Source: a virus
Taxonomy: Duplodnaviria > Heunggongvirae > Uroviricota > Caudoviricetes
DNA length: 24,117 nucleotides
Reading direction: 5' to 3' (one strand)
Virus record (IMG/VR): IMGVR_UViG_3300033146_007472
The translations under genes and the position numbers were made by a program. Of the stretch, positions 1-24,117 are shown one piece after another. Numbering within the stretch: the first letter of the stretch is position 1; every line of letters begins with the position of its first letter. The notes under the pieces were generated by a model that saw only the letters and a list, made by a program, of their open reading frames with translations, was not told the DNA's origin and ran no database searches.

Positions 1-974
1 CGGAACTGATGTAGGTCATACGTAGTAGCATTAGCATGTTTTTCAAGACCTGCAAAGCTACGGAGTTTGTAGATAATACTATGATCAATAATAAGCTTTG
101 GCATAAGTTTCATAATTGTATTCGTAAACGTAAATGCTTCCTCTAGATCGCCAGCCACCAGTTTATCTGCAATTAGTTTCGCAGCATTTTCAGAGATCTC
201 AAGAAATGAATTAGGAGTTTTCGGCAAAGAAAGAAGACCAGCGTTAGTTAGGCAGCTAAGATTTGCGATGAAGCGATCATAGCAGTTACTAGTCGGATTA
301 GAGAGTCTAGCTGAGACCCCAGAGAGCTGTTTAATATAATAAAGATCAGCTGTATTCTGTGACAGCAATTGAAAAGCCTTTCGGTAACGTGTTAAAGCCG
401 ATGTAGAAATTTCGGCTTCGACGGCTGAGGCAAAGAAACTTGGAGTCGCGGTGTAGAGCTCAGCAGCTAAGGCTGAAAAAGTCGAAAACTGAAACTGCAG
501 TGCTGAAGTTTCAGTAATAGTAAAGAATGGAAGTGCGCGTGTAATAGTTGTAAAATTATCGAATGAGTCATCAAGCTGTGGTGGAAGTTCGTGGATTTTT
601 AAAGATTGCGGAAGAAGCGTAGTATAGACTTCCGAAGAATCTGTGAGCGAAATAGCGAGTTCAAGAAACTCCGAGTTTTGAGTAAATGTAGCAGTACCGG
701 CCATAATCGGTAAAGAACCATCCGTGGTAGCGTTAAACAGTACAAGTGATGGCGTTGAAAGGTCGTTGGATGTAGTTGTAACGGTAAGCAAAAAATATTT
801 TTGATTCTCAATAGATACGTGAGCGCAGAAATCAGAGGCTGAGTCAAGACTTCGCGTGTAACGCGTGTAAACAATGCTAAGGCTAGTCGTAGAATCTGTA
901 AAAGGCTGTATAGCTGAAATATGTTTCTCGAGTGTTGGTATAGTCTCATCAAGGCTTTCGAAAAATCTAGACAT
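1..974 (-). CDS. Hypothetical protein, 3'-partial (runs off the window start; at least 324 aa, MSRFFESLDETIPTLEKH...)
   Basis: Translated by hand: ATG at 974 preceded by GGAGA, and no stop codon in frame down to position 1. It is not in the ORF track. No family recognised. Confidence 0.85.
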   Translation of the reverse strand, partial: MSRFFESLDETIPTLEKHISAIQPFTDSTTSLSIVYTRYTRSLDSASDFCAHVSIENQKYFLLTVTTTSNDLSTPSLVLFNATTDGSLPIMAGTATFTQNSEFLELAISLTDSSEVYTTLLPQSLKIHELPPQLDDSFDNFTTITRALPFFTITETSALQFQFSTFSALAAELYTATPSFFASAVEAEISTSALTRYRKAFQLLSQNTADLYYIKQLSGVSARLSNPTSNCYDRFIANLSCLTNAGLLSLPKTPNSFLEISENAAKLIADKLVAGDLEEAFTFTNTIMKLMPKLIIDHSIIYKLRSFAGLEKHANATTYDLHQF

Positions 975-1236
975 TGCTATAGAATCTCCGGTTATCGCTA
1001 AAGCGGCTAAGTATTTAGAAGTATAAAGTAATTGAAAATAGTCGTTAGAGTCGTTAATAGTAATTTAACCGTGTACTCGAGACAAAACGAAAACTAAAAA
1101 TGTATAAGAATCAATAGGGAAGCATCTCGAAGTGCCGAGAAGATCGGCTGAGAGTAACACATTTAGCCAAGAAGCTGTTTTAGAAAACGTAATGTTCTAG
1201 AAAACCGACTAATTAATTAGTAAGTCTAGCATAAGA

Positions 1237-1461
1237 TTAATTAGTCTCTAGCGCAGCGTAGAAAGCTAAGACATCAAGGCAAGTTAAGTTACGTTTGTGT
1301 ATATCGAAAATACCGAACTCAGAGGCCATCGTACGGACAAAAACGGAATTGTTTTTAAATCTATAGATAGTCTGAAATTCTTGGCTTATCTGTTGTTCGT
1401 CAGCGAATAGCGCGAAAAAGCCAGATTTTGTAATTTGAACAGTTATGTTAGTCAACATCAC
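1237..1461 (-). CDS. Small hypothetical protein (74 aa)
   Basis: AGGAAG just upstream of GTG-ATG. It starts 22 nt after the stop of the upstream same-strand gene. Confidence 0.65.
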   Translation of the reverse strand: MMLTNITVQITKSGFFALFADEQQISQEFQTIYRFKNNSVFVRTMASEFGIFDIHKRNLTCLDVLAFYAALETN

Positions 1462-1483
1462 TATCTTCCTAGCTGATTAAGTA

Positions 1484-2188
1484 TTAAAGTCGGTTAGCAG
1501 TCGGTAACAGCGTGACTAACGCCTGTTGTGACTTATGTACATTTCGTTGTGCAGCGGCTAGCTGAAGATAAGTATTGAAAGTTAAACCACTAAGCTCTTC
1601 AGTTGAAGTATCAAAAATCTGAAAAGTACCATCGGCAATTGAAACAATAAGCTTAGTATCGATGGCGAAAAGTATCGAAGTAAAGATTGGACTAACTTGT
1701 ACTGAATCTTTAATAATGACGAAATAACCATCGGCGGTTATAGAGATTTCATAAGGGCGGTTCTTGTGTTGTCTAAAAATCGAGACTGCGGTCGACATTG
1801 TTGTATTATTAGCGGAAAAAGCTGCCATATGACAACAGCTATCGAAGTGGAGTTCTAAGTAGTTCTCAAAGTCTCCAGATTTTGTCCATCCTAATCCAAT
1901 ACATTCAGTAGATTTGACTAAAGACTGTACCATAAGCGTATCAATGTCTGAGCCGGCCTGTATTGCTTTTACTATTAAACTACGTAGCTTAGGCTTCGTA
2001 GTTATTCGATATATTTGATATGTTTGATCGACGTCTGGTAAACTTATAAGACTCGTTAAAATGCCGATTATATACTCATCAACATCCTCGATTTTGAAGT
2101 ATATCAGATGTTCTGAAGTTATCGAGCACTGCAGCATCATAAGCTTGCCGACTTCAAGTTTTTGAGTTTCTGAATTTACTCTATTCAA
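1484..2188 (-). CDS. Hypothetical protein (up to 234 aa; the start may be the internal ATGATG)
   Basis: Long ORF with the T-ending codon bias of neighbouring genes. No recognisable motif. Confidence 0.75.
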   Translation of the reverse strand: MNRVNSETQKLEVGKLMMLQCSITSEHLIYFKIEDVDEYIIGILTSLISLPDVDQTYQIYRITTKPKLRSLIVKAIQAGSDIDTLMVQSLVKSTECIGLGWTKSGDFENYLELHFDSCCHMAAFSANNTTMSTAVSIFRQHKNRPYEISITADGYFVIIKDSVQVSPIFTSILFAIDTKLIVSIADGTFQIFDTSTEELSGLTFNTYLQLAAAQRNVHKSQQALVTLLPTANRL

Positions 2189-2345
2189 AAAATAGCCTTA
2201 TGTTTGGTCTTACACAAGATATGCGCTTCTTAGACAGCATTATACATTCTAAAAAATAAAAAAAGAGAAATCCTTCGATATACACAGTAGTACCAGGGAG
2301 TTTTTTACAAAAACTTCTTGGAGCTACAAATAATTTCAAACTATC

Positions 2346-2797: not shown

Positions 2798-5338
2798 ATG
2801 ATTTCTTCTAAAAAAGTTCGAGCTAATTTTACGATTGACGAGAGTTCTTTCGAAACTTACTTAAACTACGAAAAATACGAAGACGGTCTTTTTTGGATGA
2901 ATGATCGTGTTTTCTTTATGCTCGAAATCGTCGGCGGAATTTATTACTATTCTAGTGAAGAAGATATTCTTGATTATTATACGAGACTGAAGCTAGTGCT
3001 CAAGTCGATTCCACCGGAAGCGAATGCTTCAATTCAATCATTTTTTATGCCGTATCGTGATATTGACTTTGATCCGCCGCCATCGAAGTCAACGAACTCC
3101 GCGGTTAACGGCTTCTATGACGAAACGGTTAAAAAAATTAAGAACGCGCCGAAAACCGGGTACTATGATGATAAATCACTGCTCCGTGATATGCGAAATT
3201 TTTTAATCGTTATTTTTCCGCTAAAAGGATCCAATATTCTCGGGAAGATCGAAGATGTCTTGGATCAACGTGGATCGCGATTAGGTGGCTCCGCAACTGA
3301 GACTTATTTATTATGGAAGAAGTCATTTCTAACATCATTGCGCTCGATGAACTGCGATGTTACTGAAGTTGACGGTGATGATTTTCTCTATATGATGTTT
3401 ACATTGCTGAATCAAGATTTTGATCCGCTAAAACTAAAGTACAATACCTCGATACCGTTAAAACGACAGCTCTTGTATAATATCATAACGACTGATCATC
3501 ACGAAATTGCGTATTCTAAAAAGCGCTGGGCTATGGGCTTTCTCGAGAATCTTGAGCGTGTCAAGCTCGGCTTCCTGGTTGAGCTAATGGCGCTAAAGAG
3601 ACCGTTTTTCTTTTCCGTTACTATGCATTCACTTAGCACGCTTAAATTACAAGCTGTTCTTCAAGGTCGTAAACGTGCGACCATGAATAAACAAAAAATA
3701 GCTAATATCGATTCTGCACTTCAAGTTTCCGGTACTAATGACGCTTTTGAAGCCGAAGCGTATATGGGTATCTTACTCGATGATTATAAAGAAGTCGGCG
3801 AAGTCCATTCCGAATTAACTGGTTTCTTCTCAAAATATCGTTGGGACTTTCAATTTGAAACGTCCATCGCGGCGGACATGCTTCGCTCTGCACTTCCAGC
3901 GCATTTCAATACTAAAGCTGCTCGACGCTTAATGATCTTCGATGACCATGCTATTAGTTTCTTGAACTTTCGTAATTATCGCCGAAAATTTTCAGACCAA
4001 GGAATTATGTTCGCCGGCGAAGATCTTTCACCGAAGATGGTAGACATCTTTGACTCGACGGCATACGGCACTATGATCTCCGGCGGTTCTGGTTCCGGTA
4101 AAACAATGTTCTCACAGTATATGGCGATGTCCGAACTTGCACAAGGCCGCAAAGTTATCATTATTGACCCGGTTGGAAACTTTGAAGGCCTCTGCGAAGT
4201 TGTTGACGGTCAGTACTACCGGATAGGCTTATCGGACCGATGCCGTGGTATGGATTGTTTTCCGAACCTAACTTATGCGGAACTAATACAGAATAAAGAA
4301 GTCAGTTCCATGACACTTGCATTACTCGAAAAACTTATTACTCTCGGCTCAAAATCCATGGATATGTCGCCACGAGCTAAATCTGTACTTCAAAAAGCTT
4401 TCTATTTGATGTACAAGAATACTCCGGATCCGGATCTAACAATTTTTGTCGAGGTTCTAGAGAGCTTACATGCCGAGGCTGTAGACGCTGGCACAGACTC
4501 TATTGCCGGCGAGTTTGCCGCAGCTCTTGAAATGTTCTTACCTGACGGAGTGTATGGTAACCTTATTGCTAGTGATTCTCTTGATCTTGATGCGCAATTT
4601 ATTGTCTTCGACATTGGCGAACTACGTGATCGCGCCGAGCTTGCACAACTTGCTATTTATGGCTTAATGACGAAGATTTCATCACTAGTTATGTACCTTG
4701 CAACTCAGAACCAAAAGTGTATCTTGTTTATTGATGAAGCTCATTATCTTATTGCTGATCCAGGCTCCGTCTCTTTTATTAAGAATGGTGTTCGTGTTTG
4801 GCGGACTTACGGCGGGTCTCTTGTTTTAATTAGTCAACAACTTACTGACCTTTTGGAGAACCGTGAAGTTGGCGAAGGCATCTTTAAAACGCTTTACAAC
4901 TTCTTCATTCTTGCGCAGTCTCCGTCTTCGATTTATGATGCTCAAGAATTTATCGGCTATAATGACACCGAAGCAAACGCTATGACGGATCTCCGAACTG
5001 TCGCCGGCGAATATAGCTTTATGTCATATTATACACGTGGAATGGCTTCAGATGGCAATCCAGCTTTTGGTAGGTTTTATTTATCAATACCACGATATTT
5101 TTATTGGATGATGACTAGCCATCCGGACGAGAAAAGCCAGCGATTGACACGAAAGCAGCATTATATCGATAAGGGATTTACGCCGCTGGATGCCTTGCAC
5201 CATGCACTTCAAGACTTAGTTGAAGCTGAAAAAACTAAACAAAAACAGCCTGAGCCTGTAAAGTTAATCGGTATAAACCCAGATGCTCTTGCGTCGGCCG
5301 AGTCTACGGCTACTAAAATACCTGAAGACTCAGCTTAA
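2798..5338 (+). CDS. traC: Conjugative type IV secretion ATPase, TraC/VirB4 family
   Basis: 846 aa. Walker A GGSGSGKT followed by 'RKVIIIDP', then 'FIVFDIGEL', Walker B 'LFIDEAH' and 'RTYGGSLVLISQ'. Size and layout are typical of F-type TraC. GGAG upstream. Confidence 0.88.
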   Translation: MISSKKVRANFTIDESSFETYLNYEKYEDGLFWMNDRVFFMLEIVGGIYYYSSEEDILDYYTRLKLVLKSIPPEANASIQSFFMPYRDIDFDPPPSKSTNSAVNGFYDETVKKIKNAPKTGYYDDKSLLRDMRNFLIVIFPLKGSNILGKIEDVLDQRGSRLGGSATETYLLWKKSFLTSLRSMNCDVTEVDGDDFLYMMFTLLNQDFDPLKLKYNTSIPLKRQLLYNIITTDHHEIAYSKKRWAMGFLENLERVKLGFLVELMALKRPFFFSVTMHSLSTLKLQAVLQGRKRATMNKQKIANIDSALQVSGTNDAFEAEAYMGILLDDYKEVGEVHSELTGFFSKYRWDFQFETSIAADMLRSALPAHFNTKAARRLMIFDDHAISFLNFRNYRRKFSDQGIMFAGEDLSPKMVDIFDSTAYGTMISGGSGSGKTMFSQYMAMSELAQGRKVIIIDPVGNFEGLCEVVDGQYYRIGLSDRCRGMDCFPNLTYAELIQNKEVSSMTLALLEKLITLGSKSMDMSPRAKSVLQKAFYLMYKNTPDPDLTIFVEVLESLHAEAVDAGTDSIAGEFAAALEMFLPDGVYGNLIASDSLDLDAQFIVFDIGELRDRAELAQLAIYGLMTKISSLVMYLATQNQKCILFIDEAHYLIADPGSVSFIKNGVRVWRTYGGSLVLISQQLTDLLENREVGEGIFKTLYNFFILAQSPSSIYDAQEFIGYNDTEANAMTDLRTVAGEYSFMSYYTRGMASDGNPAFGRFYLSIPRYFYWMMTSHPDEKSQRLTRKQHYIDKGFTPLDALHHALQDLVEAEKTKQKQPEPVKLIGINPDALASAESTATKIPEDSA

Positions 5339-6187
5339 TTTCGGCTTTTCAGCTTTTGCGGCTAATTTTTTCTTCACTAAACCGGCGCTAATTTCGTAAG
5401 TTGATTGCGAATTTAGCGCCGACCAGTCAAACAAATAGAATGATGGCAAATCTAATTCATCATAAAACTCACCATCACACGTTGCTTCCGAAAACGAGAA
5501 AATTAAAAACGGGAACGGGTTTACTTGCAAGACGATTTTTGACAGAAACCCACGGATCGTCCGGCCTACTACGCTATCTATTGACGCTTCATATACTTGG
5601 TCTTCAATATGCCGTAAATAAACTTTCGGGAATCCTGGAGTCTTGAAGACCAGCTGATTTTCTTCCATAAAACAAGTCTGATACGGCGCCATTGATCGAT
5701 ACAGCAACGTCTCGTCTTCATCCACTAATAATTCATAGACTAATCTATCCGGTGATCTAAAATCATACTTATCTACGATAGCCGAGACATACGATAGATT
5801 CGGATCTTCGGTTATTTGAAATGTTGCTTCTGACACTTTCAACAGCACACGATGCGGGAAATATAGTGATGTAATGTTATCTCCATTACTGTCTATAATT
5901 TTTAGTCCCCGTGGTGACGAGACTGGGAAATGCGCTGTTCCTTCTCCGCGTTCAAACTGCTTCAACAATCCGCTATCAATTAAACTATATGCCGCGCCGC
6001 ACGCCGACTGATAAATTACATAATCTGCTGGCATGTCTTTAATATTATGGTAGATTACTACTTCCTCGACTTGGAAACTTTCGGCAATTTTTCCGAGTGC
6101 TTCAAGATCTTTCGCGAATTCGCGTGTTTTTTCTGCGAGGAATCGGTCATATTTCATATACTTTGGAGGGTATGTAGAGACTGCCAT
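5330..6187 (-). CDS. Hypothetical protein (285 aa, acidic, Lys-rich tail)
   Basis: Strong RBS (AAGGAG). Converges on TraC with a 9-nt overlap of the 3' ends. No family recognised. Confidence 0.8.
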   Translation of the reverse strand: MAVSTYPPKYMKYDRFLAEKTREFAKDLEALGKIAESFQVEEVVIYHNIKDMPADYVIYQSACGAAYSLIDSGLLKQFERGEGTAHFPVSSPRGLKIIDSNGDNITSLYFPHRVLLKVSEATFQITEDPNLSYVSAIVDKYDFRSPDRLVYELLVDEDETLLYRSMAPYQTCFMEENQLVFKTPGFPKVYLRHIEDQVYEASIDSVVGRTIRGFLSKIVLQVNPFPFLIFSFSEATCDGEFYDELDLPSFYLFDWSALNSQSTYEISAGLVKKKLAAKAEKPKLS

Positions 6188-6328: not shown

Positions 6329-7465
6329 ATGCTGAATATGTTTGAGTTGTTGGACTCACGATATGACCTAGCGTTATCCGATAATGAATTCACAATGCTA
6401 ATTTCAAAGAGCCGTCTTGCTAACGTTAATTCGAATCTTGAGCGTTTCGGTTTCTTAGCCGCAAGTATTATTACGGCTGATGATATGAAAGCCGAATCAC
6501 TCCATGCAATTCTGGCTGGTCAGCCATCTCTACTTTCACTGTCCGGTCAGAATGCTCTACATGATCTTCTTCCGCTTCTTGAAGATTCACAAGCTTTAAT
6601 TAGCGAATTTCTCTGCTGGCAATATGTCTCTAATTTTACGCCGCTTGATTTTACTCCACCGGAGAACTGGCGTGATGTTTTATACTTGTTCGAAGACAAT
6701 GAAACCAAGCGTCTTTTAGAAGCCGGCTATGCCGATTCACTCTTTCAGCTTCGGCAAGCTGTCCCGGATGACACGGTTGAAGCGCTTATTGCTTACGAAA
6801 CCGTTCTAGCGCTACGCTTTCGTCCGCGGATTCCATCAAAGAACCCGGCCTTTTATTCACACCCGCGAGTGTTAATTTCGCCTGGTGATACGGTTCTAGA
6901 CTGTGGTGCTTGTGCGAATGCATACGGCGGTCAGTTCGTTACTGATTTCGCAACTTTATGCCAGCCAGCCGGCAAGGTAATTGCATTTGAGCCAATGCAT
7001 GAGGTTTTTCAGGCACTTGAAGCGGATGTTGCAGATATTTTCAATGTTGTATTAGTTAATGCGGCTGTCTGGAGCCGACCGACAACTCTTACTTTTGCTG
7101 CAGACGGTATTCAAAGCCGAAAATTGCTTGAATCTGAAGAACAGCCTGCTTCAGCTTCTGATCTGTCTTTGATGGCCAGCCATGTAAGTGTCCGTGCTGA
7201 ACGCATCGACGACCTGGATGCCGAGCAGCCGATTAATTTTATCAAAATGGACGTTGAAGGCGCCGAGTATGACGCTTTACTTGGCGCTCAGTCTATCATA
7301 CAGCGTGATAAACCTAAATTATCCATCTGCCTTTATCATTCACCGGCTGATTTTGTTCGTATTCCGAAGCTTATTCATGAGTTCTGTCCAGAGTACAAAA
7401 TGTGGATTGAGCTTAATGAAGGACATTCTTGGGCCGGCATGAAACTCTTTGCAAGTGTTGAGTAA
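6329..7465 (+). CDS. FkbM-family SAM-dependent methyltransferase
   Basis: Motifs 'VLDCGA', 'VIAFEP', 'NAAVW', 'INFIKMDVEGAEYDALLGA' and 'KPKLSICLYH'. Confidence 0.9.
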   Translation: MLNMFELLDSRYDLALSDNEFTMLISKSRLANVNSNLERFGFLAASIITADDMKAESLHAILAGQPSLLSLSGQNALHDLLPLLEDSQALISEFLCWQYVSNFTPLDFTPPENWRDVLYLFEDNETKRLLEAGYADSLFQLRQAVPDDTVEALIAYETVLALRFRPRIPSKNPAFYSHPRVLISPGDTVLDCGACANAYGGQFVTDFATLCQPAGKVIAFEPMHEVFQALEADVADIFNVVLVNAAVWSRPTTLTFAADGIQSRKLLESEEQPASASDLSLMASHVSVRAERIDDLDAEQPINFIKMDVEGAEYDALLGAQSIIQRDKPKLSICLYHSPADFVRIPKLIHEFCPEYKMWIELNEGHSWAGMKLFASVE

Positions 7466-10701: not shown

Positions 10702-10923
10702 TTGTCAATGTATTCACCAAATACTATTAGTTCACAAACTACGCCTGTCGCGTTAAAAGCATATCTGACTACGGTAAGCACGCCACAGCTTCTTGAAACT
10801 TGGCGCTCGTTACAAAATATTCGCTGGTCTGGAACTCCGAAAGTACTAAGCACTTCTCCGCCATCTTTTATGACGGTGTATCATTTTCTTAAACTTGAGC
10901 TACGCTTTCGGGGATGCTTATGA
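10702..10923 (+). CDS. Small hypothetical protein (73 aa; the start may be ATG 10708)
   Basis: AAGGA upstream. Its TGA overlaps an in-frame ATG of the nuclease gene (ATGA at 10920-10923), which suggests translational coupling. Confidence 0.6.
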   Translation: MSMYSPNTISSQTTPVALKAYLTTVSTPQLLETWRSLQNIRWSGTPKVLSTSPPSFMTVYHFLKLELRFRGCL

Positions 10924-15330: not shown

Positions 15331-15555
15331 ATGACTCAACCTCAATTAGACCAAATGACTGATTCATTGAATCTCGGTTTAGCTCATGAAGACATACGAG
15401 TGATACTTGATGTCGGATGGAATATTATAGCTAAATTTGCTGAAAGCCATGGCTCTATTGCTAATAAGGACTTCGGTACTATCTGACGTGACGATCTACT
15501 GTACTTAATGATTGCCGACATCTCACACCAAGGTTTAGAGCTAGCTGTTAACTAG
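15331..15555 (+). pseudogene. HU/IHF-like gene lacking the DNA-binding arm, with an in-frame TGA at 15484-15486 (51-aa product, or 74 codons if read through)
   Basis: AGGAG at 15321-15325, ATG at 15331. Sequence: MTQPQLDQMTDSLNLGLAHEDIRVILDVGWNIIAKFAESHGSIANKDFGTI*RDDLLYLMIADISHQGLELAVN*. FGTI at residues 48-51 matches IHF-beta FGSF 48-51, and the C-terminus resembles HU 'LKDAV(K/N)'. Not in the ORF track. Confidence 0.55.
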
Positions 15556-16002: not shown

Positions 16003-17352
16003 TTAACGACGTGACCTATTTAATGAGCCACGTTTCGCGCCGAATTTAATTTCAAATTGCATTAGATACTGTTGATCTTCGGTCAGTGTTGCATAATCAT
16101 AGGCTGTTTTTTTACGACTATCTTTAGTTTGCCGGAACTTTGCGCCCAATTTCTCTAATTCAAGTAATGTCGGAATATCTTTTTTCTGCGCTGCAAACAT
16201 TCCGATTGTCCGTCCCCAGCGATCTGGAAGATCGGCTTTTACGCCGCTTAAGATAATGTCAGCGATACGCTCAATCGGAATAGATTGTTTTTTTAAACCG
16301 ATCTGATAAAGCAGACTTAGGATCGAACGACCACGTTTATCATGTGACTTTGGATCTGCACCGAGATCTAACAATGGACGTACAAGCTTATCATAGTGTG
16401 TTGAAACGACGGCATCAAATAACGGCGTATTTTTTGCTGGCGAGTTATCTGCTCGGTTAAGCCATTGTTTTATATTGTCATTCGTATATTTACTATATAA
16501 TCCGAGAACTCTACGTGCTAATACGGCATTCTGTGACGTGATTGCAGCTTGAAGTAGAGTACGGCTTTGTGCATCAACCTTGTTTAATGAAATACTTCGG
16601 ATTATTTTCGGCTTCTCATCTAAGAGCCACGAAGCTATCGAAGGAAGTTTCTCAATCACAGCGAAGAACGGCGTTCGTTCCTCTTTACTTTGTGCAATTG
16701 CATATTTTTTTGAATTGAGCTCCGATGGCGTTAACTCCGCGTCTTTATACTCATTTACGCCATCCCACGGAATTAAGTCTACAAATTGTTTCGAAACTGT
16801 TGCTTCTTCCGTCGTACCGCTAGCTTTGAGTACAACTGAGGTTTTAAGTAACTCGAGCATCCCAGTGTCGGAGGCTATTTTTTCGGATAATAAACTCAAA
16901 GCTTCAGTAACTGTAAATTGTTGCGGGTCTCGTGCCGCGATTTGTGTAAGAATCTGTGTTAGATATAGCTTATTTTTCGCTGGTTCATCTAACTGACTTA
17001 AGCTCAATATTAAGTTTACGAGGTTTTGTTGTTCAGACACTCCGCCGTAAACTAACTCGCGCTGAGCTCGCAGGTCATTCGGGAAGTGTTCAATTAACAT
17101 TTGAAGTAGCTGCGTTGACTTCAGTTCTTCATGATAGACTTCAGTTTCTTTTAATAACAAGTGTAGTACTTCAGTTCTATTTTTAAGCGGAGTTGTTACT
17201 GCGCTTTCGAATAAATCTTTGATTTCGGTTAATGACATCTTTGTTATTTTTTCATGCACGAAAGCGGTAATGCCGAAATTTTCAGCATGCATAAGTACTA
17301 ACATTATTTCAGATTTCAAGATTCTCACCTCTGATGGAAAAGTTGCGAGCAT
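16003..17352 (-). CDS. Ankyrin-repeat protein (repeats in the C-terminal half; start codon uncertain)
   Basis: Repeats 'DAQSRTLLQAAI', 'NTPLFDAV...LLDLGADP', 'DKRGRSILS', 'DRWGRTIGMFAA...LGA' and 'DSRKKTAYDYA'. Confidence 0.8.
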   Translation of the reverse strand: MLATFPSEVRILKSEIMLVLMHAENFGITAFVHEKITKMSLTEIKDLFESAVTTPLKNRTEVLHLLLKETEVYHEELKSTQLLQMLIEHFPNDLRAQRELVYGGVSEQQNLVNLILSLSQLDEPAKNKLYLTQILTQIAARDPQQFTVTEALSLLSEKIASDTGMLELLKTSVVLKASGTTEEATVSKQFVDLIPWDGVNEYKDAELTPSELNSKKYAIAQSKEERTPFFAVIEKLPSIASWLLDEKPKIIRSISLNKVDAQSRTLLQAAITSQNAVLARRVLGLYSKYTNDNIKQWLNRADNSPAKNTPLFDAVVSTHYDKLVRPLLDLGADPKSHDKRGRSILSLLYQIGLKKQSIPIERIADIILSGVKADLPDRWGRTIGMFAAQKKDIPTLLELEKLGAKFRQTKDSRKKTAYDYATLTEDQQYLMQFEIKFGAKRGSLNRSRR

Positions 17353-17499: not shown

Positions 17500-17892
17500 A
17501 TGAAAATGAAAACACGTCTAGCCCGGTTTCGTAGTCGCGGTTTTGAAGGTACAAATCAACTCACTTCAAATTTTGAAAAATTCTCAGCTCTACGCTCGCC
17601 AATTGTGATGGCGCTAGTTCTTGTGCTTTTATCCGCTGCTGCAGCTTCTGCTCAAACCGCAACTAATACTTTCGGCACAGCCTTTGATGAACAGACAACT
17701 GGCGCTCTTGACGGCTTTACTTGTGCGATGCGCGGTACTTTCGGCTGGCTGATTATCGGCTTCGGAATGCTTCTTGCCATCTGGGATTATTTCGTGCAGA
17801 AACAAGGTCACTTGCTGATTATCGCAGTTGTCGGTGTTCTTGCTGTTATTATTCTCAGCCGTGCATTACCAACTCCTGCAGCTGGTTGTTAA
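17500..17892 (+). CDS. Conjugative pilin precursor (VirB2/TrbC/TraA-like)
   Basis: GGAGG RBS. 51-aa leader ending A-S-A|Q. The mature part has two hydrophobic helices separated by a QKQG loop. 'FTCAMRGTFG' resembles VirB2 'ICTFILGPFG'. Confidence 0.7.
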   Translation: MKMKTRLARFRSRGFEGTNQLTSNFEKFSALRSPIVMALVLVLLSAAAASAQTATNTFGTAFDEQTTGALDGFTCAMRGTFGWLIIGFGMLLAIWDYFVQKQGHLLIIAVVGVLAVIILSRALPTPAAGC

Positions 17893-17928
17893 ATACGTAT
17901 TCTGCGTTTCTATAAAGGTTTATATGAC

Positions 17929-18156
17929 ATGCTAGGATCTTCAAAGTTGGCGTCCGGATTAGTAGCCCTAAGTGTATTAGCGGTAACGATTTCACCAATT
18001 TCCGAAGCCATTTTTCATGTGAAAAAAGCACAGCAGTCAGTTACACAAGCCTCGGAAGATTTTCGGGCTAGTCGTGATATCAACTACGACGCACTGCTTC
18101 GCGAGCTTAAAAAAATTCAAGTCTATCTAGAACAAGAAAACGCAAAAAACAACTAA
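17929..18156 (+). CDS. Small membrane-anchored or secreted protein (75 aa)
   Basis: Hydrophobic N-terminus and a helical C-terminus; directly follows the pilin gene. Confidence 0.7.
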   Translation: MLGSSKLASGLVALSVLAVTISPISEAIFHVKKAQQSVTQASEDFRASRDINYDALLRELKKIQVYLEQENAKNN

Positions 18157-18188
18157 AGATTATGCTGAGCATTTCGTTGTTTTAACTT

Positions 18189-18223
18189 AAAAAAGAGTCG
18201 GCAGATTTTTGTCGGCTCTTTTT
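18189..18223 (+). terminator. Intrinsic terminator
   Basis: Stem AAAAAGAGTCGGCA / TGTCGGCTCTTTTT whose two non-canonical pairs are G-U on the + strand, ending in a T run. It closes the pilin and 75-aa unit. Confidence 0.7.
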
Positions 18224-18251
18224 GTGTAATCTTATATGACTTAGGAGAACT

Positions 18252-18569
18252 ATGATGCGCATTATTAGCTTTTTAGCTTTATTGTTAATGTTTTCATCTT
18301 CGACGGCGTTTGCTGACGGTCGTGGTCTTTCTGACGAAACTCTTAATCGACTCGCGCAGACTAACTACTTATCTGGCGAACAATCTACGCCAGAAGCTGT
18401 TACGCTGCGCCCGACGACACTGACTGGTCGGACTCTCTGTACTGGAGAATGCACGGAGCTGGTTATTACGGTCTTTTCAACTCCAGATTTTCGACGCTCG
18501 ACGTCGTCTAGCAGATCTCTAACTTCGCCATCTGTAAATAAACGAATATCACCGCGCTATTTAAAGTAA
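18252..18569 (+). CDS. Secreted protein (signal peptide ending AFA|D; 105 aa)
   Basis: AGGAG RBS, classical signal peptide, CTGEC motif. Confidence 0.7.
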   Translation: MMRIISFLALLLMFSSSTAFADGRGLSDETLNRLAQTNYLSGEQSTPEAVTLRPTTLTGRTLCTGECTELVITVFSTPDFRRSTSSSRSLTSPSVNKRISPRYLK

Positions 18570-18630
18570 CGTTCGGTTTTTGAATTATAGCCTAGCTTTT
18601 GTGTACAAGTATCTCTCAACTGCAATTTTC

Positions 18631-18644
18631 TAACTCATGAGTTA
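18631..18644. promoter_or_regulatory. Perfect 14-bp palindrome, possible operator
   Basis: TAACTCATGAGTTA, 47 nt upstream of the lipoprotein start. Confidence 0.3.
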
Positions 18645-18691
18645 CTTAAGATGCATTAAGCTCAATACTAAACTCTAAGGAGACTTTAATT

Positions 18692-19468
18692 ATGACGCGT
18701 CGTTTTTTCTTGAATGCCGTTCTGTTTCTTTCACTGCTTGTATTATCAGCATGTGTTGCGAAGGTACCGGTTGCTCAAGTTCCGCCACCTGCTGCGCCTG
18801 TTGTCGATGTTTGCGCGGATTCTGAAGCCGATCGCTGGACGGAGCTCGGTGAATTTTATCGCGGCAAATATACTTCCGACCTTGTTTTTGGCGCGTCGGT
18901 TGAAACCGAAAAACTAAAATCATCTTTGCGTCTCGTAGATAATTTTTTACGAACTGATGTACTGACTGAATATGACGCTGCCGCGACTTCAAATACTATT
19001 TTTAATAAATACGAGAAGAGCTCGGATATTACGCTAAGCTTCCGTCCTCCAGCCTACAAAATTAATGACTCTGAAGCTTTTTATAACGCGGTAATTACTG
19101 ATCGCTTTATGTCTTACTTTTCTCTAAAAAAGAAAGTAGGTACTTGGTGGACGTTTGTAGATCTATCAAATTTAGTAACTTGGGAAGCTTACTTCTGGAA
19201 CGCGTATTTTGTCGAACGAGGCTTAGAACCGGAATTTGCACATGATCTGAATATGTTAGTTCTCGGCAATTTCTCAACTGCCGAAGAAGCTTTGTATATG
19301 AAAGATAATTTTGTTGATTCTCAAATTCCGATTACTGTAGCTTTTGTTGTGTATGACAAATTTCCGGCAGTAGAGTCTTCAGCCTTTGAATCTTTAAATC
19401 TTTCAGCTGGAACTACGGACTCTAATGAAAAATCTTCAGTCTTTACTTTTACCCCGGTCCAGCAATAA
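18692..19468 (+). CDS. Lipoprotein (258 aa) with Pro-rich linker and possible SPOR-like C-terminal segment
   Basis: Lipobox LSA|C21 and AAGGAG RBS. 'MLVLGNFSTAEEALYMKDNF' resembles a SPOR repeat (weak). Confidence 0.75.
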   Translation: MTRRFFLNAVLFLSLLVLSACVAKVPVAQVPPPAAPVVDVCADSEADRWTELGEFYRGKYTSDLVFGASVETEKLKSSLRLVDNFLRTDVLTEYDAAATSNTIFNKYEKSSDITLSFRPPAYKINDSEAFYNAVITDRFMSYFSLKKKVGTWWTFVDLSNLVTWEAYFWNAYFVERGLEPEFAHDLNMLVLGNFSTAEEALYMKDNFVDSQIPITVAFVVYDKFPAVESSAFESLNLSAGTTDSNEKSSVFTFTPVQQ

Positions 19469-19943
19469 CACAGCTTTTATAGCAAACCATGCTAAGCTTG
19501 TATTGCCGCTCCGAACACTTCTAGTTTTATTTTGTCTTCCTGGTTCCGGATGGCTAATTTTAATTCAGCCATCCGAATCATATTTTACGTATTCAAAACC
19601 TTTCGATACACAAAGTATCTCGCAGTACTTCAATTCCATGCTTTCTTCAATGTTAATAATATTTATGGTTCGTCTATGCACGTTTTCCGCTTTCAATATA
19701 AATGCTTATATATACGGCGCAGCGATTCTGTTACTTTTCAGCGCGTCAATTTGGTACTGGAAACAAATATTCCGGCCGCTTAAACATTTGATTATTTTTC
19801 TCAGCGTGTTATATGCTCTTAGGTATGATATGTATAGCGCTCATATCGCGCTCACTATAATCTCAATCATTGTTCTTAAACTTCATTTTCATCAGTATTC
19901 TAGAATATTTCTAGCCCGCGTACCGGAGTCTCGTATAAAATGA
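19425..19943 (+). CDS. Multi-pass membrane protein (start uncertain)
   Basis: Several hydrophobic segments. Its TGA overlaps the next gene's ATG (ATGA at 19940-19943). Confidence 0.65.
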   Translation: MKNLQSLLLPRSSNNTAFIANHAKLVLPLRTLLVLFCLPGSGWLILIQPSESYFTYSKPFDTQSISQYFNSMLSSMLIIFMVRLCTFSAFNINAYIYGAAILLLFSASIWYWKQIFRPLKHLIIFLSVLYALRYDMYSAHIALTIISIIVLKLHFHQYSRIFLARVPESRIK

Positions 19944-20425
19944 AAAAGCATAAACTTATTATAAACAAAGGAATTTTTCAGCATAGTTTTGACTTCTTTT
20001 CATATATGTGGCGTGTTTTGTATGTTGGTGTGGTTGATTCTGACCGCTTAACCGATCCAGACCTACGTACGCCAGGCTTGCATGCCGAAGCGGTTTTATA
20101 TGCTTTTTTAGCTTCTTTTATACTTATTACGCAGCTTAGTATTCTAAGTATTGTTTTCTTCGCAATAAATGCACGAATATTATATTTACAGATCTTAGAC
20201 GCTCCAGGACCTGGACTCGTTTTTGCCGCTTTAGCAATGTTTTTTGGCATACCGACCTTTATTTTCTTTCATCCGTTGACTTTCTTAGCCTATCCATTTG
20301 TCAGTATTGCAATGCTGATACATCTAGGTACAGATGGAGTTCTTAGTTCTAAACTAAAATACCTTGAGAGTTTGAAAGTAGGATTAATCGTTCTTTCCGG
20401 CTTTCTCCACTGGTTCTTGGTATAA
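19940..20425 (+). CDS. Multi-pass membrane protein (about 4 TM segments)
   Basis: Hydrophobic helices; translationally coupled to the upstream gene. Confidence 0.75.
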   Translation: MKKHKLIINKGIFQHSFDFFSYMWRVLYVGVVDSDRLTDPDLRTPGLHAEAVLYAFLASFILITQLSILSIVFFAINARILYLQILDAPGPGLVFAALAMFFGIPTFIFFHPLTFLAYPFVSIAMLIHLGTDGVLSSKLKYLESLKVGLIVLSGFLHWFLV

Positions 20426-20470
20426 ATAGCCAATACTACGACTTTTATAAATGATAGAGGAGATATTTTT

Positions 20471-20908
20471 ATGCGCAGAGTGTTTGTTGTTCTTTTAACA
20501 CTGATTTTGATGACTGTCGCAGTTACTGTGGCAGCCGAGACATCTATGAATCTTGAAGCACAAAAACAAGCTTTTAAAGCTGGCTTTATGTCTCAACAAA
20601 TCAATGGCACAGATCTTCAAACGGAGCTTGAGAAGTATAATACAACTCCTATTGAATATCTATCATATTACCGGCTTCTTGAACAAACTCAGACTGCACC
20701 AGTTTTAGTTGTGCAGTATCATCGCGAATTTGATAGCCTTGGTCAACTTTCTGTGACTCCAGATATGAAATTTAAAGACTTCTCGGCCGCAGATTATCCG
20801 CGAGCCTCTTTTCTGAAGAGTTTATTAGAATACAATAAAGACTTCCTAGATCTTGACGTACTTTCAAAAGCTTCTAAACCTGCGACTTTACAGCTTGGGA
20901 GTAATTAA
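20471..20908 (+). CDS. Secreted or periplasmic protein (145 aa)
   Basis: GAGGAG RBS and a signal peptide. Its stop lies 2 nt before the TraV-like start. Confidence 0.8.
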   Translation: MRRVFVVLLTLILMTVAVTVAAETSMNLEAQKQAFKAGFMSQQINGTDLQTELEKYNTTPIEYLSYYRLLEQTQTAPVLVVQYHREFDSLGQLSVTPDMKFKDFSAADYPRASFLKSLLEYNKDFLDLDVLSKASKPATLQLGSN

Positions 20909-20910
20909 TA

Positions 20911-21369
20911 ATGAAGTTCTATACTATCTTAGTAGCCGGATTGTTAAGTCTGTGTCTTAGTGCTTGTGCGCCAACTGTAAAGCCTCCAGCACAAAATGCT
21001 TTAGACAACATGTTTAATCATGCTCAAGATCGTCAACAAGACAGTCTAGAAATCGAATTAGACGGCCTTCGTCGGAAAGCTGAAATTCTCGAGAAGATCC
21101 ACCAGTACCAACCGATGATCAAAGTTATAAATATCTATCTACCTCAAAAACAATTACCGTCTGGAGTATACACGCATCCTCAGGTGGTATCCGTGCCGCT
21201 AGTTTATAAGCAATCACATCTTAAGTTTTCAGAAGCCGCTATGAACTCATTGTTTGATGACAATAATGACAGCAAATCTGAAGCTGAACGCAAAGCAACA
21301 CTCGGTACTACGACTATTCCAGAGTCGGCCGCTAAACAACCAGCTGGTAATACTACACACAATAAATAA
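20911..21369 (+). CDS. TraV-like conjugative lipoprotein
   Basis: Lipobox LSA|C19. 'VINIYLPQKQLPSGVYTHPQVVSVP' resembles the TraV pattern (IWIAPxxDxxGxLHxxxxVY). Confidence 0.6.
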   Translation: MKFYTILVAGLLSLCLSACAPTVKPPAQNALDNMFNHAQDRQQDSLEIELDGLRRKAEILEKIHQYQPMIKVINIYLPQKQLPSGVYTHPQVVSVPLVYKQSHLKFSEAAMNSLFDDNNDSKSEAERKATLGTTTIPESAAKQPAGNTTHNK

Positions 21370-21465: not shown

Positions 21466-21780
21466 TTATTTCGGCGGTGTCGGAGGAAGCACTACCATAT
21501 CTGGCTTGTCATCTTCATCTTCTTCTTTGTCTTGCATGACTGCTGTCATATATGTACCATTTGATAGCTTAATAGACAACTTAACACGATCATTTTTAGT
21601 CGTACCTTTCCAGGCTGCTCCAACTTCATCATTACCTTGAAAGAGACGATAATCTGGGTGAGCGTCGCCATTCTTCCGTTCATTCTTTTTACCGGTATAC
21701 GCGACACCTTGAATCTTAATATCTAATTCTAGATTGTCATCAACTTCCCGAAAAAAGACTGTTCCATGATCTTCGGCCAT
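21466..21780 (-). CDS. DUF736-like protein, paralog 2
   Basis: 'HPDYRLFQGNDEVGAAW' signature and AAGGAG RBS. Clearly aligns with 13923..14381. Confidence 0.7.
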   Translation of the reverse strand: MAEDHGTVFFREVDDNLELDIKIQGVAYTGKKNERKNGDAHPDYRLFQGNDEVGAAWKGTTKNDRVKLSIKLSNGTYMTAVMQDKEEDEDDKPDMVVLPPTPPK

Positions 21781-21809: not shown

Positions 21810-22571
21810 CTAGTTCTTTTTGCTTGCTTTGTTTGCTTTCTCTAGCTTTTTTGTTTCACGGATTTGTTTCCGCTCGAGTTTTCGTTTTTCGTTTTCGACA
21901 CGTTTTGCTTCTTGACGAAGCTGTGTTGCCATTTTTCGTTCTTGTTTTCTTTTTGCAACATCAGCATGATGCTTAGCTAATTTTTCTTCTTTCGTAATGC
22001 GACGGATTAATTCTAATGTTGAGATATTAAATGCTAATCCAGAGTAGTATAGGTATAAGCCGATAGAATCTAGCCAATGATTATCAGTTGTTACAAATTT
22101 TCGGCCTAATGACTTTGACACGAGTGTTTTAAGCGCTAATGCTACGGTCTTTTTGTCACCAGCTAATGCGCGCTTCCAAACTGATGATGTAACGGTTTCG
22201 GCAGTAATTCCGGCATGCTGTAAGTATCCGCGAATAAATGAAATTAATTCTTTCATCTTCGAGATTGTCGCGCCATTCGCTGCAAGTCCGATACGACTCT
22301 TTTCGTTTCCACCTGGAAAACTACTAAAATACACGAAGCTTTCTAGAATAACGACTTTACAATTCCACGTAGTATACAGGTCTAGAATACGCTCGGCTAG
22401 TTCTATTTCCGACAAGGTTTTTCCATCATACACACCATACACCAAAACTTCGCCAGCTCTACAAACTGAATAGCCTAGTGACTTGCGTAATCCTGGGTCG
22501 ATCGCGAGTATAGTATCTGTACTAACAATATCACGACTTTTTTCAAAAATTTGCATATTGAGTAACGTCAC
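21810..22571 (-). CDS. ruvC: RuvC-like Holliday-junction resolvase with a roughly 60-aa Lys/Arg/Glu-rich C-terminal extension (ATG start at 22556 plausible)
   Basis: 'ILAIDPG', 'VILES', 'WKRALAG' and 'DNHWLDSIG' carry the RNase-H-fold acidic residues. Confidence 0.8.
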   Translation of the reverse strand: MTLLNMQIFEKSRDIVSTDTILAIDPGLRKSLGYSVCRAGEVLVYGVYDGKTLSEIELAERILDLYTTWNCKVVILESFVYFSSFPGGNEKSRIGLAANGATISKMKELISFIRGYLQHAGITAETVTSSVWKRALAGDKKTVALALKTLVSKSLGRKFVTTDNHWLDSIGLYLYYSGLAFNISTLELIRRITKEEKLAKHHADVAKRKQERKMATQLRQEAKRVENEKRKLERKQIRETKKLEKANKASKKN

Positions 22572-22666
22572 TTTCTAGTATATAATAGAGGTTAGAATTT
22601 TCAGCACTGTTTAGCTTTTAAGTATCCTTAGCCATAAGCTATTGATACTATTCCCGGAGAAAATTT

Positions 22667-23497
22667 ATGCACTCATTTCAGCCTACGACTTTCAATACTT
22701 TTGCAGAGGCATATAAACATCTTGCTGAGACACTTCTTGATTCACCGACGGCTGAGAGTCGAAATGCTAAGACACGCGAAATCTGCGATGCTCAATTTCG
22801 AATACTACAACCGAATACTTCATTAGCTCTCGTCGGGTCTAGACTACGTTACATGTTTGCCGAAGCATTATGGTATGCAGCCGGAGATTACACGACGCCT
22901 TGGATCACTAACTTTTCGTCTTTTTGGCCACGTATCGCGGATGCAGATGGGTTAATCTCCTCAAATTACGGGCAGCGTATTTTTCGTGCAACTAAAACTT
23001 TTAATACTGCATTCAAAATGCTGTGCGCTGATCCCGGATCACGCCAAGCTATTTGTCATATAAATCAGTCTGCAGATATTTTTGCTACGAATAAAGATAT
23101 TCCGTGCACGATGTACCTTCAATTTTTCATTCGTAAGTCACAACTACATCTCAGCGTACATATGCGTAGCAATGACATTTGGCGTGGCTTAACTTATGAT
23201 GCGCCGAACTTCTTTCTCTTTCAGCAAACCATGCTATATTTTTTACAGTCCGCCGGATATGACATTACTCTAGGCTCATATACACATCATGCTGGAAGTT
23301 TTCATGTCTATGAAACTGAAGTCAAGCAGTTACAGAAGTATTGTTTAGCTCCGCTCACAGACATTCCATTGCAGTTAAAAGCACCTCTTATTAATCTTGA
23401 CGGATCACCAACGACGAAAGCCCTTAAATTTTATAATTCAACGTCTGAAGGTGCCTTCGACGTCTCCAAATTCACGAAACATTTTTTAACTATATAG
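22667..23497 (+). CDS. Thymidylate-synthase-fold nucleotide-modifying enzyme, probably dCMP hydroxymethylase or methylase type
   Basis: 'AEALWY' (E66), 'SSNYGQRI', 'DPGSRQAI', 'DIPCT' (C147), 'MRSNDIWRGLTYD' (D178) and 'GSFHVY'. The pattern matches T4 gp42 better than ThyA. Confidence 0.8.
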   Translation: MHSFQPTTFNTFAEAYKHLAETLLDSPTAESRNAKTREICDAQFRILQPNTSLALVGSRLRYMFAEALWYAAGDYTTPWITNFSSFWPRIADADGLISSNYGQRIFRATKTFNTAFKMLCADPGSRQAICHINQSADIFATNKDIPCTMYLQFFIRKSQLHLSVHMRSNDIWRGLTYDAPNFFLFQQTMLYFLQSAGYDITLGSYTHHAGSFHVYETEVKQLQKYCLAPLTDIPLQLKAPLINLDGSPTTKALKFYNSTSEGAFDVSKFTKHFLTI

Positions 23498-23520
23498 TTT
23501 TTTCTAGAAAGCTTCAATTT

Positions 23521-24117
23521 ATGCCTAAGTTATTATACTCTACTGTACGAATTACTGCTTTTCCAGATATGACGGATGATGCACTGAAAGCCTATTTCAT
23601 ACTATTAAAACTGTTGCCATTTGAGCATGCTGAAAAAGCTGAGTACTTAGGCTGCTTGCAAGAACTAACATTACGGAAAATTGACTCCACGAATATTCTA
23701 GTCCGTGATTTACCGATTACATTAAAAAACCCGACTGAATTGCAATCTAGGCTTTTTGAATTCAAAAAACGATATTTTGCTGCTTTTCACGGTGACAAGC
23801 TTCTAGAAATCGAAAAAGACAAGCAGCAGAAACTAGACCTTGCCGCTGAAAAACTACGCTTAGCTGATGAAGCGAAGCGTTTGAAAGCCGAAGAGCGCGC
23901 AAAAGTTAAAGCAGAAAAAGTGCGCATCGCTGACGAGAAACGTAAGGCTCGTGCCGAAGAGCGCGCAAAAGTTAAAGCAGAAAAAGTGCGCATTGCTGAC
24001 GAGAAACGTAAGCTTAAAGCTAAAGCTTCTGAAGATAAACAGCCATCACTAGACTTTTCGTCTGAGACCTCAACGACTACAGCATCTTCAAAATCTTCAA
24101 AACAATCATCTCTTTAG
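23521..24117 (+). CDS. Hypothetical protein with a charged K/E/A/R repeat region and a Ser/Thr-rich tail
   Basis: Complete ORF 23 nt downstream of the TS-fold gene; contains a 22-aa tandem repeat. Confidence 0.8.
   Translation: MPKLLYSTVRITAFPDMTDDALKAYFILLKLLPFEHAEKAEYLGCLQELTLRKIDSTNILVRDLPITLKNPTELQSRLFEFKKRYFAAFHGDKLLEIEKDKQQKLDLAAEKLRLADEAKRLKAEERAKVKAEKVRIADEKRKARAEERAKVKAEKVRIADEKRKLKAKASEDKQPSLDFSSETSTTTASSKSSKQSSL
23887..24012 (+). repeat. In-frame tandem duplication with a 66-bp period (AEERAKVKAEKVRIADEKRK twice)
   Basis: 23887-23946 and 23953-24012 are identical apart from one synonymous change (ATC/ATT). Confidence 0.95.

Follow-up and report, generated by a model that had tools for sequence, protein, structure and literature searches.

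A candidate cytosine-modification enzyme in the backbone of a deeply divergent lineage of putative type IV secretion elements

IMG/VR record IMGVR_UViG_3300033146_007472 is a stretch of 24,117 bases, hereafter called the window, that carries genes for type IV secretion together with a gene for an enzyme of the thymidylate synthase (TS) fold. The initial annotation, made from the sequence alone, proposed that these genes belong to a giant self-transmissible element that makes its own modified nucleotides. Gene calling across the whole window under translation table 11 gives a coding share of ~88%, and the GC content is even, at 35-44% along the sequence. GGAG-type Shine-Dalgarno motifs are located upstream of most starts, pointing towards a bacterium as the host. 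The locus is best explained as a segment of the backbone shared by large mobile elements of bacteria that make up a rare and deeply divergent lineage. The genes that bear most directly on this reading are as follows (values in scientific notation, here and below, are E-values).

2798-5338, plus strand: TraC/VirB4-type type IV secretion ATPase, 846 amino acids (Pfam P-loop_TraG 2.8e-20, AAA_10 5e-10)
10914-11480, plus strand: SNase-like nuclease, 188 amino acids (phrog_452 endonuclease 3.3e-6)
13923-14381, minus strand: DUF736 paralogue, 152 amino acids (Pfam DUF736 6.9e-6, 26.3 bits)
17500-17892, plus strand: likely divergent VirB2/TrbC-type pilin precursor, 130 amino acids (topology and family link to Pfam TrbC)
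17929-21369, plus strand: seven small membrane or secreted proteins, read from translations, candidate mating-pair-formation components; these include the next three lines
18252-18569 and 20471-20908, plus strand: signal-peptide proteins, read from translations
18692-19468 and 20911-21369, plus strand: lipoproteins, read from translations
19425-19943 and 19940-20425, plus strand: proteins with multiple transmembrane segments, read from translations
21466-21780, minus strand: DUF736 paralogue, 104 amino acids (Pfam DUF736 3.4e-7, 30.5 bits; cut-off 22.1)
21810-22571, minus strand: RuvC-like Holliday-junction resolvase with a Lys-rich C-terminal tail, 253 amino acids (phrog_159 9.1e-7, phrog_1770 3.7e-5)
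22667-23497, plus strand: TS-fold enzyme, predicted deoxycytidine monophosphate (dCMP) 5-hydroxymethylase, 276 amino acids (Pfam Thymidylat_synt)

The first of these genes was initially called TraC/VirB4, and this call stands. In addition to the Pfam matches listed above, its product matches the NCBIfam model TIGR02746 (TraC-F-type) at 3.9e-53 and 180 bits, against an equivalog cut-off of 567, and the alignment covers residues 314-800 only. The match to NCBIfam VirB4_CagE (9.7e-29) is also below the equivalog cut-off, and that to Pfam TraC_F_IV (0.0023) is below the cut-off of that family. Because the TIGR02746 score is far below its cut-off and the alignment is partial, we regard the protein as a divergent member of the superfamily and not as an equivalog. 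The Walker motif GSGKT is invariant across seven members of the TraC family examined. The ATPase is 22-25% identical to plasmid TraC proteins, and about six close relatives (47-60% identity) were found among 5.8 billion clustered proteins.

A search with the TraC protein revealed that the window is part of a 143,966-bp contig. One relative is the 95,662-bp contig Ga0502371_0000078 (hereafter the JGI relative), which derives from a marine metagenome of a Fucus vesiculosus enrichment. Two further contigs, both from a single ENA sample, provide a second source of comparison (the ENA relative). The window is collinear with these relatives from TraC to its last gene, with 29-60% protein identity as judged by blastp of open reading frames (ORFs). 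The collinear block includes a DUF736 gene, the RuvC-like gene, the TS-fold gene, and the gene without a recognized family downstream of it, all in the same order. The TS-fold gene is found at the same position in both relatives (54-55% identity), and this conserved placement marks it as a backbone gene rather than as cargo acquired recently. The gene call for it in the JGI record covers just 119 amino acids (L004:8717-9076). However, this gene call appears truncated, because an open frame of 282 amino acids (L004:8228-9076) aligns from its N-terminus with the window enzyme at 55% identity.

The pilin-like gene at 17500-17892 has orthologues in both relatives. By itself, the window protein scores weakly against Pfam TrbC (PF04956; E=2.7). 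A profile constructed from this protein and its two orthologues was then searched against 1.84 billion representative proteins, yielding 15 relatives, and an alignment of 17 sequences was assembled from the three orthologues and 14 of the profile-search matches. Of these 17 sequences, 7 match Pfam TrbC/VirB2 (best 3.7e-5), with no other family as a serious competitor. Members of the family carry a signal peptide, which in the window protein ends in an A-x-A-type site, and two hydrophobic helices that are joined by a conserved DYFVQKQG-type loop. Furthermore, a C-terminal Cys is nearly invariant among the 17 sequences. A protein atlas also gives TrbC as the lead for this protein, at 0.89. Given the TrbC matches within the family, the topology, and the atlas lead, a divergent VirB2-type pilin is the best reading of this sequence. 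This reading strengthens the initial description of the gene as pilin-like, and the window therefore appears to carry two type IV secretion components.

The pilin gene heads a run of eight co-oriented genes for small membrane or secreted proteins (17500-21369, counting the pilin). None of the other seven products matches Pfam, PHROGs, or NCBIfam, and the protein atlas was uninformative for the 258-amino-acid lipoprotein. The gene at 20911-21369 had been described as TraV-like. Its product does have a lipoprotein signal with an LSAC lipobox, but it matches no family, and we therefore do not retain the TraV designation. The JGI relative has orthologues of three of the seven, and its own comparable gene run ends in an M15 peptidase. 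This peptidase gave rise to the idea that the cluster is a phage lysis cassette, which was set aside because the first gene of the cluster links to TrbC/VirB2 pilins. Overall, we consider it very probable that these contigs represent a lineage of mobile elements equipped with a type IV secretion system.

The product of the TS-fold gene matches Pfam PF00303 (Thymidylat_synt) at 2.4e-16, which is above the cut-off. Among its solved relatives, the CMP 5-hydroxymethylase MilA is the best match (1.9e-23), followed by the dCMP hydroxymethylase T4 gp42 (3e-10) and ThyA (~1e-9). To compare active sites, we used an alignment that took in ThyA, MilA, and the TS homologues of phages T4, SPO1, M6, ViI, and PhiW-14, of which the last four were taken as deoxyuridine monophosphate (dUMP) hydroxymethylases. 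The general-base Glu (E66) and the catalytic Cys (C147) of the window enzyme coincide in the alignment with their catalytic counterparts in ThyA, gp42, and MilA. Its signature residues are E66, D144-I-P-C147-T148, R125, R167-S168-N169-D170, and D178, and the positions that are diagnostic for substrate and product are listed here.

D178 (ThyA N177): Asp, as in gp42 (D179) and MilA (D186); Asn in ThyA and the four phage dUMP-type homologues; points to a cytosine substrate
Cys147 followed by Thr, the PCT motif (ThyA Cys146 followed by His): motif as in gp42 and MilA; the phage dUMP-type enzymes have Asn (CN)
D144 (ThyA L143): located, as in gp42 and MilA, three positions ahead of the catalytic Cys; points to a hydroxymethyl or hydroxy product, not methyl
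D170 (ThyA D169): within the RSND motif; argues against a 5-hydroxy-dCMP synthase
S168 and R125, the latter in an SRQ motif (ThyA S167 and R126): deoxyribose type; MilA has Ala176 and Lys133

These assignments rely on published determinants. An Asp at the ThyA N177 position marks enzymes that use cytosine over uracil substrates (PMC8670742, PMC5175136), and an acidic residue in place of ThyA L143 lets water in, giving hydroxymethyl or hydroxy products and not methyl products (PMC13326640). Enzymes that are 5-hydroxy-dCMP synthases carry Asn at the ThyA D169 position (PMC13326640), and the preference of MilA for CMP rests on Ala176 and Lys133 (PMC5175136). All six of the diagnostic residues checked favor the conversion of dCMP to 5-hydroxymethyl-dCMP. 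The signature residues speak against formation of dTMP, 5-methyl-dCMP, 5-hydroxy-dCMP, or hydroxymethyl-CMP. Moreover, the tabulated key positions are identical in the six nearest relatives of the enzyme, except for one His at the position of Q152. From these residues, we judge that the enzyme is probably a dCMP hydroxymethylase. Its initial description as T4-gp42-like holds for the chemistry signature, which matches that of gp42, but not for overall similarity. By sequence, its nearest kin are MilA and a clade of uncharacterized homologues with the cytosine-type Asp, and not gp42.

Other DNA-related genes named in the initial annotation were also recovered. The RuvC-like protein scores only 0.028 against Pfam RuvC, yet in addition to its PHROG matches it has an IDPG motif, and residues D25, E77, D163, H165, and D168, among them the acidic catalytic residues of an RNase-H-fold nuclease, are invariant in three orthologues. 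Both DUF736 copies in the window score above the Pfam cut-off and are 37% identical to one another. The nuclease call is likewise upheld by the phrog_452 match and by an orthologue (50% identity) that itself has a weak match to the SNase Pfam family, whereas a PDB sequence search with the nuclease returned nothing useful.

To extend the view beyond the window, we also considered 70.6 kb of the JGI relative, for a total of ~94 kb of sequence. Past the equivalent of the window end, the JGI relative encodes a 433-amino-acid protein without a recognized family and a DnaB-like helicase. A 671-amino-acid VirD4/TraG coupling protein with three T4CP Pfam domains is encoded ~11 kb past that point. This contig also carries genes for a topoisomerase III with DUF3945, a RecJ-like DHH protein, GyrA- and GyrB-like subunits, and a 998-amino-acid family-A DNA polymerase. 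Directly after the polymerase gene is one for an AAA_28 kinase domain (3.8e-13) fused to a dUTPase_2 domain (7.2e-9), and a dCMP deaminase (3.8e-21) is encoded as well. In the ENA relative, a thymidylate kinase gene (2.5e-44) directly follows TraC, and an RNA ligase gene is present. The JGI relative further contains GGDEF, PilZ, and HD-GYP-type genes and a gene for a PhoH-like ATPase. Besides these, a gene with an A24 prepilin-peptidase domain and two with A24 N-terminal domains are found in this relative (L027:12856-13608, L027:20228-20620, L001:9761-10060). The combination of A24 with GGDEF, PilZ, and HD-GYP genes is unusual for a conjugative element, and it hints at a pilus-processing step or one controlled by cyclic di-GMP.

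Genes typical of virions were searched for in parallel. No terminase, portal, capsid, or tail family was found among the main ORFs of the window or the Pfam hits of the relatives' called genes, and PHROG scans of ten large proteins of unrecognized family from the JGI relative gave no match to these families. The only structural PHROG match among the main ORFs of the window is weak (2.2e-4) and involves a Lys/Glu-rich repeat protein. A tRNA scan of the window found none, an Rfam search of the window gave zero matches, and a tRNA scan of seven loci of the relatives was also empty. Indeed, the ~94 kb examined contains neither a tRNA nor a ribosomal or other translation housekeeping gene. Thus, the original statement that the window has no virion or chromosomal genes holds, and the absence of terminase and capsid families extends to the 70.6 kb of the JGI relative.

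The lineage appears to be far from everything catalogued, because its family-A polymerase can be aligned to known phage and plasmid polymerases over only ~14% of its length and its TraC protein is so distant from those of plasmids. A megablast search of the whole window against phage and plasmid collections gave zero matches, and an exact look-up of the window proteins in an assembly index returned nothing. Pattern scans of viral, genome, and metagenome contigs confirmed no relative, and an exact 38-base search with the window end found nothing in viral and metagenome contigs. A search of sequencing runs, which yields no habitat evidence, gave one DNA run, with a 0.06 share of words, and no RNA run. 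For the relatives' own proteins, PDB sequence searches with a 973-amino-acid protein and the 433-amino-acid protein gave nothing useful, and the protein atlas was uninformative for the former.

These observations can be combined into a proposed mechanism. A type IV secretion apparatus would be formed with the VirB2-type pilin, the TraC/VirB4 ATPase, and the VirD4 coupling protein seen in the relative. The TS-fold enzyme would most likely move a one-carbon unit from methylene-tetrahydrofolate to C5 of dCMP, with hydration yielding 5-hydroxymethyl-dCMP. An element-encoded kinase, together with the nucleoside diphosphate kinase of the host, could then convert this product to hydroxymethyl-dCTP (hm-dCTP), while the dUTPase/dCTPase-like domain and the dCMP deaminase would bias the nucleotide pools. 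The family-A polymerase of the element would build the modified base into element DNA. When sent through the type IV system, DNA bearing 5-hydroxymethylcytosine (5hmC) would be less sensitive to restriction in the recipient, and possibly to CRISPR. The RuvC-like resolvase may resolve recombination or replication intermediates, in keeping with recombination-linked replication. The TS-fold gene has a replication setting, because it is located between the resolvase gene and, in the relatives, the gene for the DnaB-like helicase.

We consider it an even matter whether the lineage is one of elements that join type IV secretion to a phage-like module for replication and cytosine modification, in which the full chain, through to anti-restriction, operates as described. 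The narrower proposal that the product of the TS-fold enzyme ends up in element DNA as an anti-restriction device is, on the sequences at hand, slightly short of even. It is rather unlikely, though conceivable, that the lineage represents an unrecognized class of capsid-less, virus-like conjugative elements with their own polymerase, helicase, and topoisomerases, genome-wide 5hmC, and spread by a pilus-based type IV secretion system.

Several points weigh against this interpretation. Only the relatives show VirD4, the polymerase, the kinase/dUTPase fusion, and the deaminase. The part played by the fusion in the pathway is a guess, because a homologue search returned only the protein itself at similar length, and the JGI annotation names it a nicotinamide riboside kinase. 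Neither a DNA glycosyltransferase nor a clear dCTPase was found in the sequence examined, and equivalents of VirB6, VirB8, VirB9, and VirB10 are not recognizable. Likewise, neither a relaxase nor an origin of transfer (oriT) was found: the Pfam hits for the window and the 70.6 kb of the JGI relative include no relaxase, and a crude scan for the relaxase His motif was empty for extracted ORFs of at least 150 amino acids from the window and relatives. There is also a biological difficulty, since a resident element that makes hm-dCTP would be expected to modify the host chromosome as well. Therefore, the initial proposal of a self-transmissible, self-modifying element is borne out in part. The pilin, TraC, the dCMP-hydroxymethylase signature, and the VirD4 and polymerase genes of the relatives, which it suggested looking for, agree with it, but a relaxase and an oriT were not found in the sequence examined. 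The nucleotide kinase that it anticipated has candidates in the fusion and the thymidylate kinase of the relatives, but neither a clear dCTPase nor a glycosyltransferase was seen.

Other explanations assign different roles to the same genes. The element could be a novel virus or phage-plasmid whose virion genes are too divergent to recognize, or are located in the unread ~120 kb of its own contig or 25 kb of the relative. The modified-base pathway, the polymerase, the topoisomerases, RuvC, PhoH, the RNA ligase, and the M15 peptidase would then be ordinary lytic-phage equipment, with the type IV secretion ATPases as an added or repurposed module. Many of the genes fit this idea: a family-A polymerase, both type II topoisomerase subunits, a dCMP deaminase, a PhoH-like ATPase, and a RecJ-like DHH protein are typical of large lytic phages, and the relatives add the RNA ligase and the M15 peptidase at the end of the small membrane-protein cluster. 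M15 peptidases are common among phage endolysins. The TS-fold enzyme's next closest clade is found in a siphophage, and many large ORFs have no recognizable family. However, the terminase, portal, capsid, and tail families are absent from everything scanned for them, no relative was found in the viral contig collection, and no tRNAs were found. Moreover, TraC, VirD4, the VirB2-type pilin, DUF736, and topoisomerase III with DUF3945 mark conjugative elements. We regard a viral or phage-plasmid identity as unlikely.

We give a similarly low probability to a type IV secretion plasmid or integrative and conjugative element whose TS-fold enzyme does not modify element DNA, and instead drains dCMP for defense or exclusion or makes a free modified pyrimidine, as with MilA and BcmA. 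That MilA is the closest solved relative agrees with this proposal, as does the occurrence of cytosine-type TS homologues on ordinary plasmids with neighbors that resemble defense or small-molecule operons, such as Rhizobium pRCCGE532a (AAA ATPase, ImmA/IrrE) and a Streptococcus salivarius megaplasmid. It also sidesteps the problem of a resident element modifying the host chromosome. However, the ribose determinants of the window enzyme are of the deoxy type (Ser, Arg) and not the Ala/Lys of MilA (PMC5175136), no MilB-type N-glycosidase or other tailoring family was recognized among its neighbors, its gene stands in the replication setting noted above, and no PADLOC defense model matches it. 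Least probable, and very unlikely in our judgment, is that the window is a chimeric assembly, or an element integrated into the chromosome of a bacterium that is uncultivated and probably host-associated, such that the co-occurrence of these genes has no functional meaning. The ankyrin, GGDEF, and PilZ genes could indeed be cellular cargo. Nevertheless, three assemblies made independently from different samples agree in gene order at protein identities of 29-60%, which a chimera would not reproduce, the ~94 kb lacks translation housekeeping genes and tRNAs, and GC content is an even 40-41% in both the window and the JGI relative.

Comparison with known systems helps to place the proposed type IV secretion lineage. 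With T4 gp42 (PDB 1b49, 1b5d, 6a9b), the window enzyme shares the TS fold, the C-T and RSND motifs, an Asp and an acidic residue at the positions of ThyA N177 and L143, respectively, and the Ser and Arg of the deoxyribose type. The logic of the T4 pathway is echoed by the relatives' genes for a dCTPase/dUTPase-like domain, a kinase, a dCMP deaminase, and a dedicated polymerase. However, the two enzymes are only ~30% identical, type IV secretion genes stand in place of virion genes, and neither a glucosyltransferase nor a recognizable gp56-type dCTPase was found here. MilA (mildiomycin biosynthesis; PDB 5jnh, 5b6d) shares the cytosine-specific Asp and the hydroxymethylase-type acidic residue, but its Ala176 and Lys133 correspond to Ser168 and Arg125 in the window enzyme, and no MilB-type glycosidase or other antibiotic-pathway family was recognized among the neighbors.

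The secretion genes most resemble F-type systems (MPF_F), since F-type TraC is the best VirB4 subfamily, a pilin gene heads a set of small envelope genes, and there is a coupling protein, which in this lineage is seen in the relative. Unlike F-type systems, TraC is highly diverged, far below the equivalog cut-off, and encoded 12 kb from the pilin cluster, the pilin resembles the P-type TrbC/VirB2, and no relaxase was found. Furthermore, TraB, TraK, TraV, TraW, TraU, TraN, TraF, TraH, and TraG are not recognizable here.

Non-ThyA members of the TS family are also carried by the conjugative plasmids pEC2_1-4 (Escherichia coli, IncHI1B) and pRCCGE532a of Rhizobium sp. CCGE532, and thus the co-occurrence of a type IV secretion system with a TS homologue is not unique in itself. 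The plasmid pEC2_1-4 (NZ_CP016183.1, L024:4613-5888) differs in that its enzyme is uracil-type (C-N motif, Asn). This homologue has a dUMP-hydroxymethylase signature, is annotated as thymidylate synthase, and is encoded directly after a MazG pyrophosphohydrolase gene; by its sequence, the pair could constitute a 5-hydroxymethyldeoxyuridine (5-hmdU) pathway on a clinical-type plasmid. The enzyme of pRCCGE532a (MOBP, MPF_T; L022:4959-5981) is cytosine-type, but it has a defense-like neighborhood, flanked by an AAA ATPase, hypothetical proteins, and an ImmA/IrrE peptidase. No polymerase or topoisomerase is annotated within ~10 kb around the TS genes of either plasmid, and a literature search found no study of these two homologues. 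A siphophage contig (L008:2931-6491, L009:7148-10708) encodes a cytosine-type TS homologue, P0025, with the C-T motif and Asp. Its gene adjoins those for a 5-hmdU DNA kinase (HMUDK), a TAGT pyrophosphorylase, and a radical-SAM enzyme, which are families described for thymidine hypermodification. Given the cytosine-type residues of P0025, this cluster may act on 5hmC instead.

The remaining features of the window are as follows.

2189-2797: longest gene-free stretch, 609 bp, upstream of TraC, with inverted repeats I1-I3, I8, and I15
5330-6187, minus strand: conserved protein of unrecognized family adjoining TraC, 285 amino acids; orthologues at the same position in both relatives, 32-39% identity
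6329-10138, plus strand: conserved trio of the next three genes, in the same order in the JGI relative
6329-7465, plus strand: FkbM-family methyltransferase (Pfam Methyltransf_21 1.6e-17)
7472-8506, plus strand: S41 peptidase (Pfam Peptidase_S41 4.7e-15)
8567-10138, plus strand: AAA ATPase with two Clp-D2-like modules (Pfam AAA_2 3.1e-13)
11644-13809, plus strand: ClpA/ClpB-like two-ring ATPase, 721 amino acids (Pfam AAA_2 1.3e-54, ClpB_D2-small 1.2e-13, Clp_N 1.1e-4)
16003-17352, minus strand: ankyrin-repeat protein, 449 amino acids (Pfam Ank_2 3.4e-8)
23521-24117, plus strand: Lys/Glu-rich repeat protein, 198 amino acids, complete, downstream of the TS-fold gene

The N- and C-terminal halves of the AAA protein at 8567-10138 each align to the D2 module of the neighboring ClpA-like protein, which fits a tandem D2-D2 architecture that a separate early note had suggested. 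The N-terminal half keeps a GYTG pore-loop-like motif and lacks Walker A. In the ENA relative, a ClpA-like gene is followed by ClpS. With PADLOC, the two AAA proteins gave generic Clp-like matches only, the nuclease a weak SNase-type match (4.2e-4), and the TS-fold enzyme nothing. The 285-amino-acid protein beside TraC matches no family, and its AlphaFold2 model was unusable (mean pLDDT 41). An HU-like gene had been proposed at 15331-15555, but searches of Pfam at E<=10 and of PDB HU/IHF proteins were empty, even when a TGA codon was read through, and the 51-amino-acid ORF of this region has no match in the relatives at E<=1e-4 (blastp, ORFs of at least 50 amino acids). The proposal is therefore not upheld.

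An ankyrin gene is found at a conserved position in all three elements, and four such genes are clustered near the DnaB-like gene in the ENA relative (L006:13235-17594). The pattern points to a host living in association with eukaryotic cells or within them, or to effectors secreted through the type IV system. At the other end of the window, the stop codon of the Lys/Glu-rich protein occupies the final three bases, and its orthologues, at the same position in the relatives, are 220-230 amino acids long. A 66-bp tandem repeat within this gene (23887-24012; 1.9 copies, 98% matches) encodes a Lys/Glu/Ala-rich repeat of 22 residues. This repeat is similar to the Lys-rich tail of the RuvC-like protein, and both may serve as DNA-binding tails. 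The gene-free stretch at 2189-2797, in which a number of imperfect hairpins and a long-range inverted pair of 9 bp (2346 and 2665) are seen, may hold a promoter or an origin. The JGI contig starts just 660 bp before its TraC gene. Palindrome avoidance in the window is weak, with |z| up to 2.4, and uninformative alone.

T-even phages swap cytosine for 5hmC throughout their DNA, and the replacement of a base before replication, by way of the nucleotide pool, is regarded as a lytic-phage strategy. Conjugative elements evade restriction by means of anti-restriction proteins and methyltransferases. A literature search for a pyrimidine hydroxymethylase pathway on a conjugative element was without result. 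The lineage described here is very isolated, as judged by the handful of TraC relatives among billions of proteins and by the polymerase. The finding as it stands combines genes of known kinds, and it would be more than that if the DNA is 5hmC-substituted and the element is capsid-less. If DNA containing 5hmC is indeed moved through a type IV secretion system, base hypermodification would reach a second great class of mobile elements. One would then have to ask by what means an element residing in a host keeps a modified nucleotide within its own DNA, and the replication modules of phages and plasmids would be less sharply divided.

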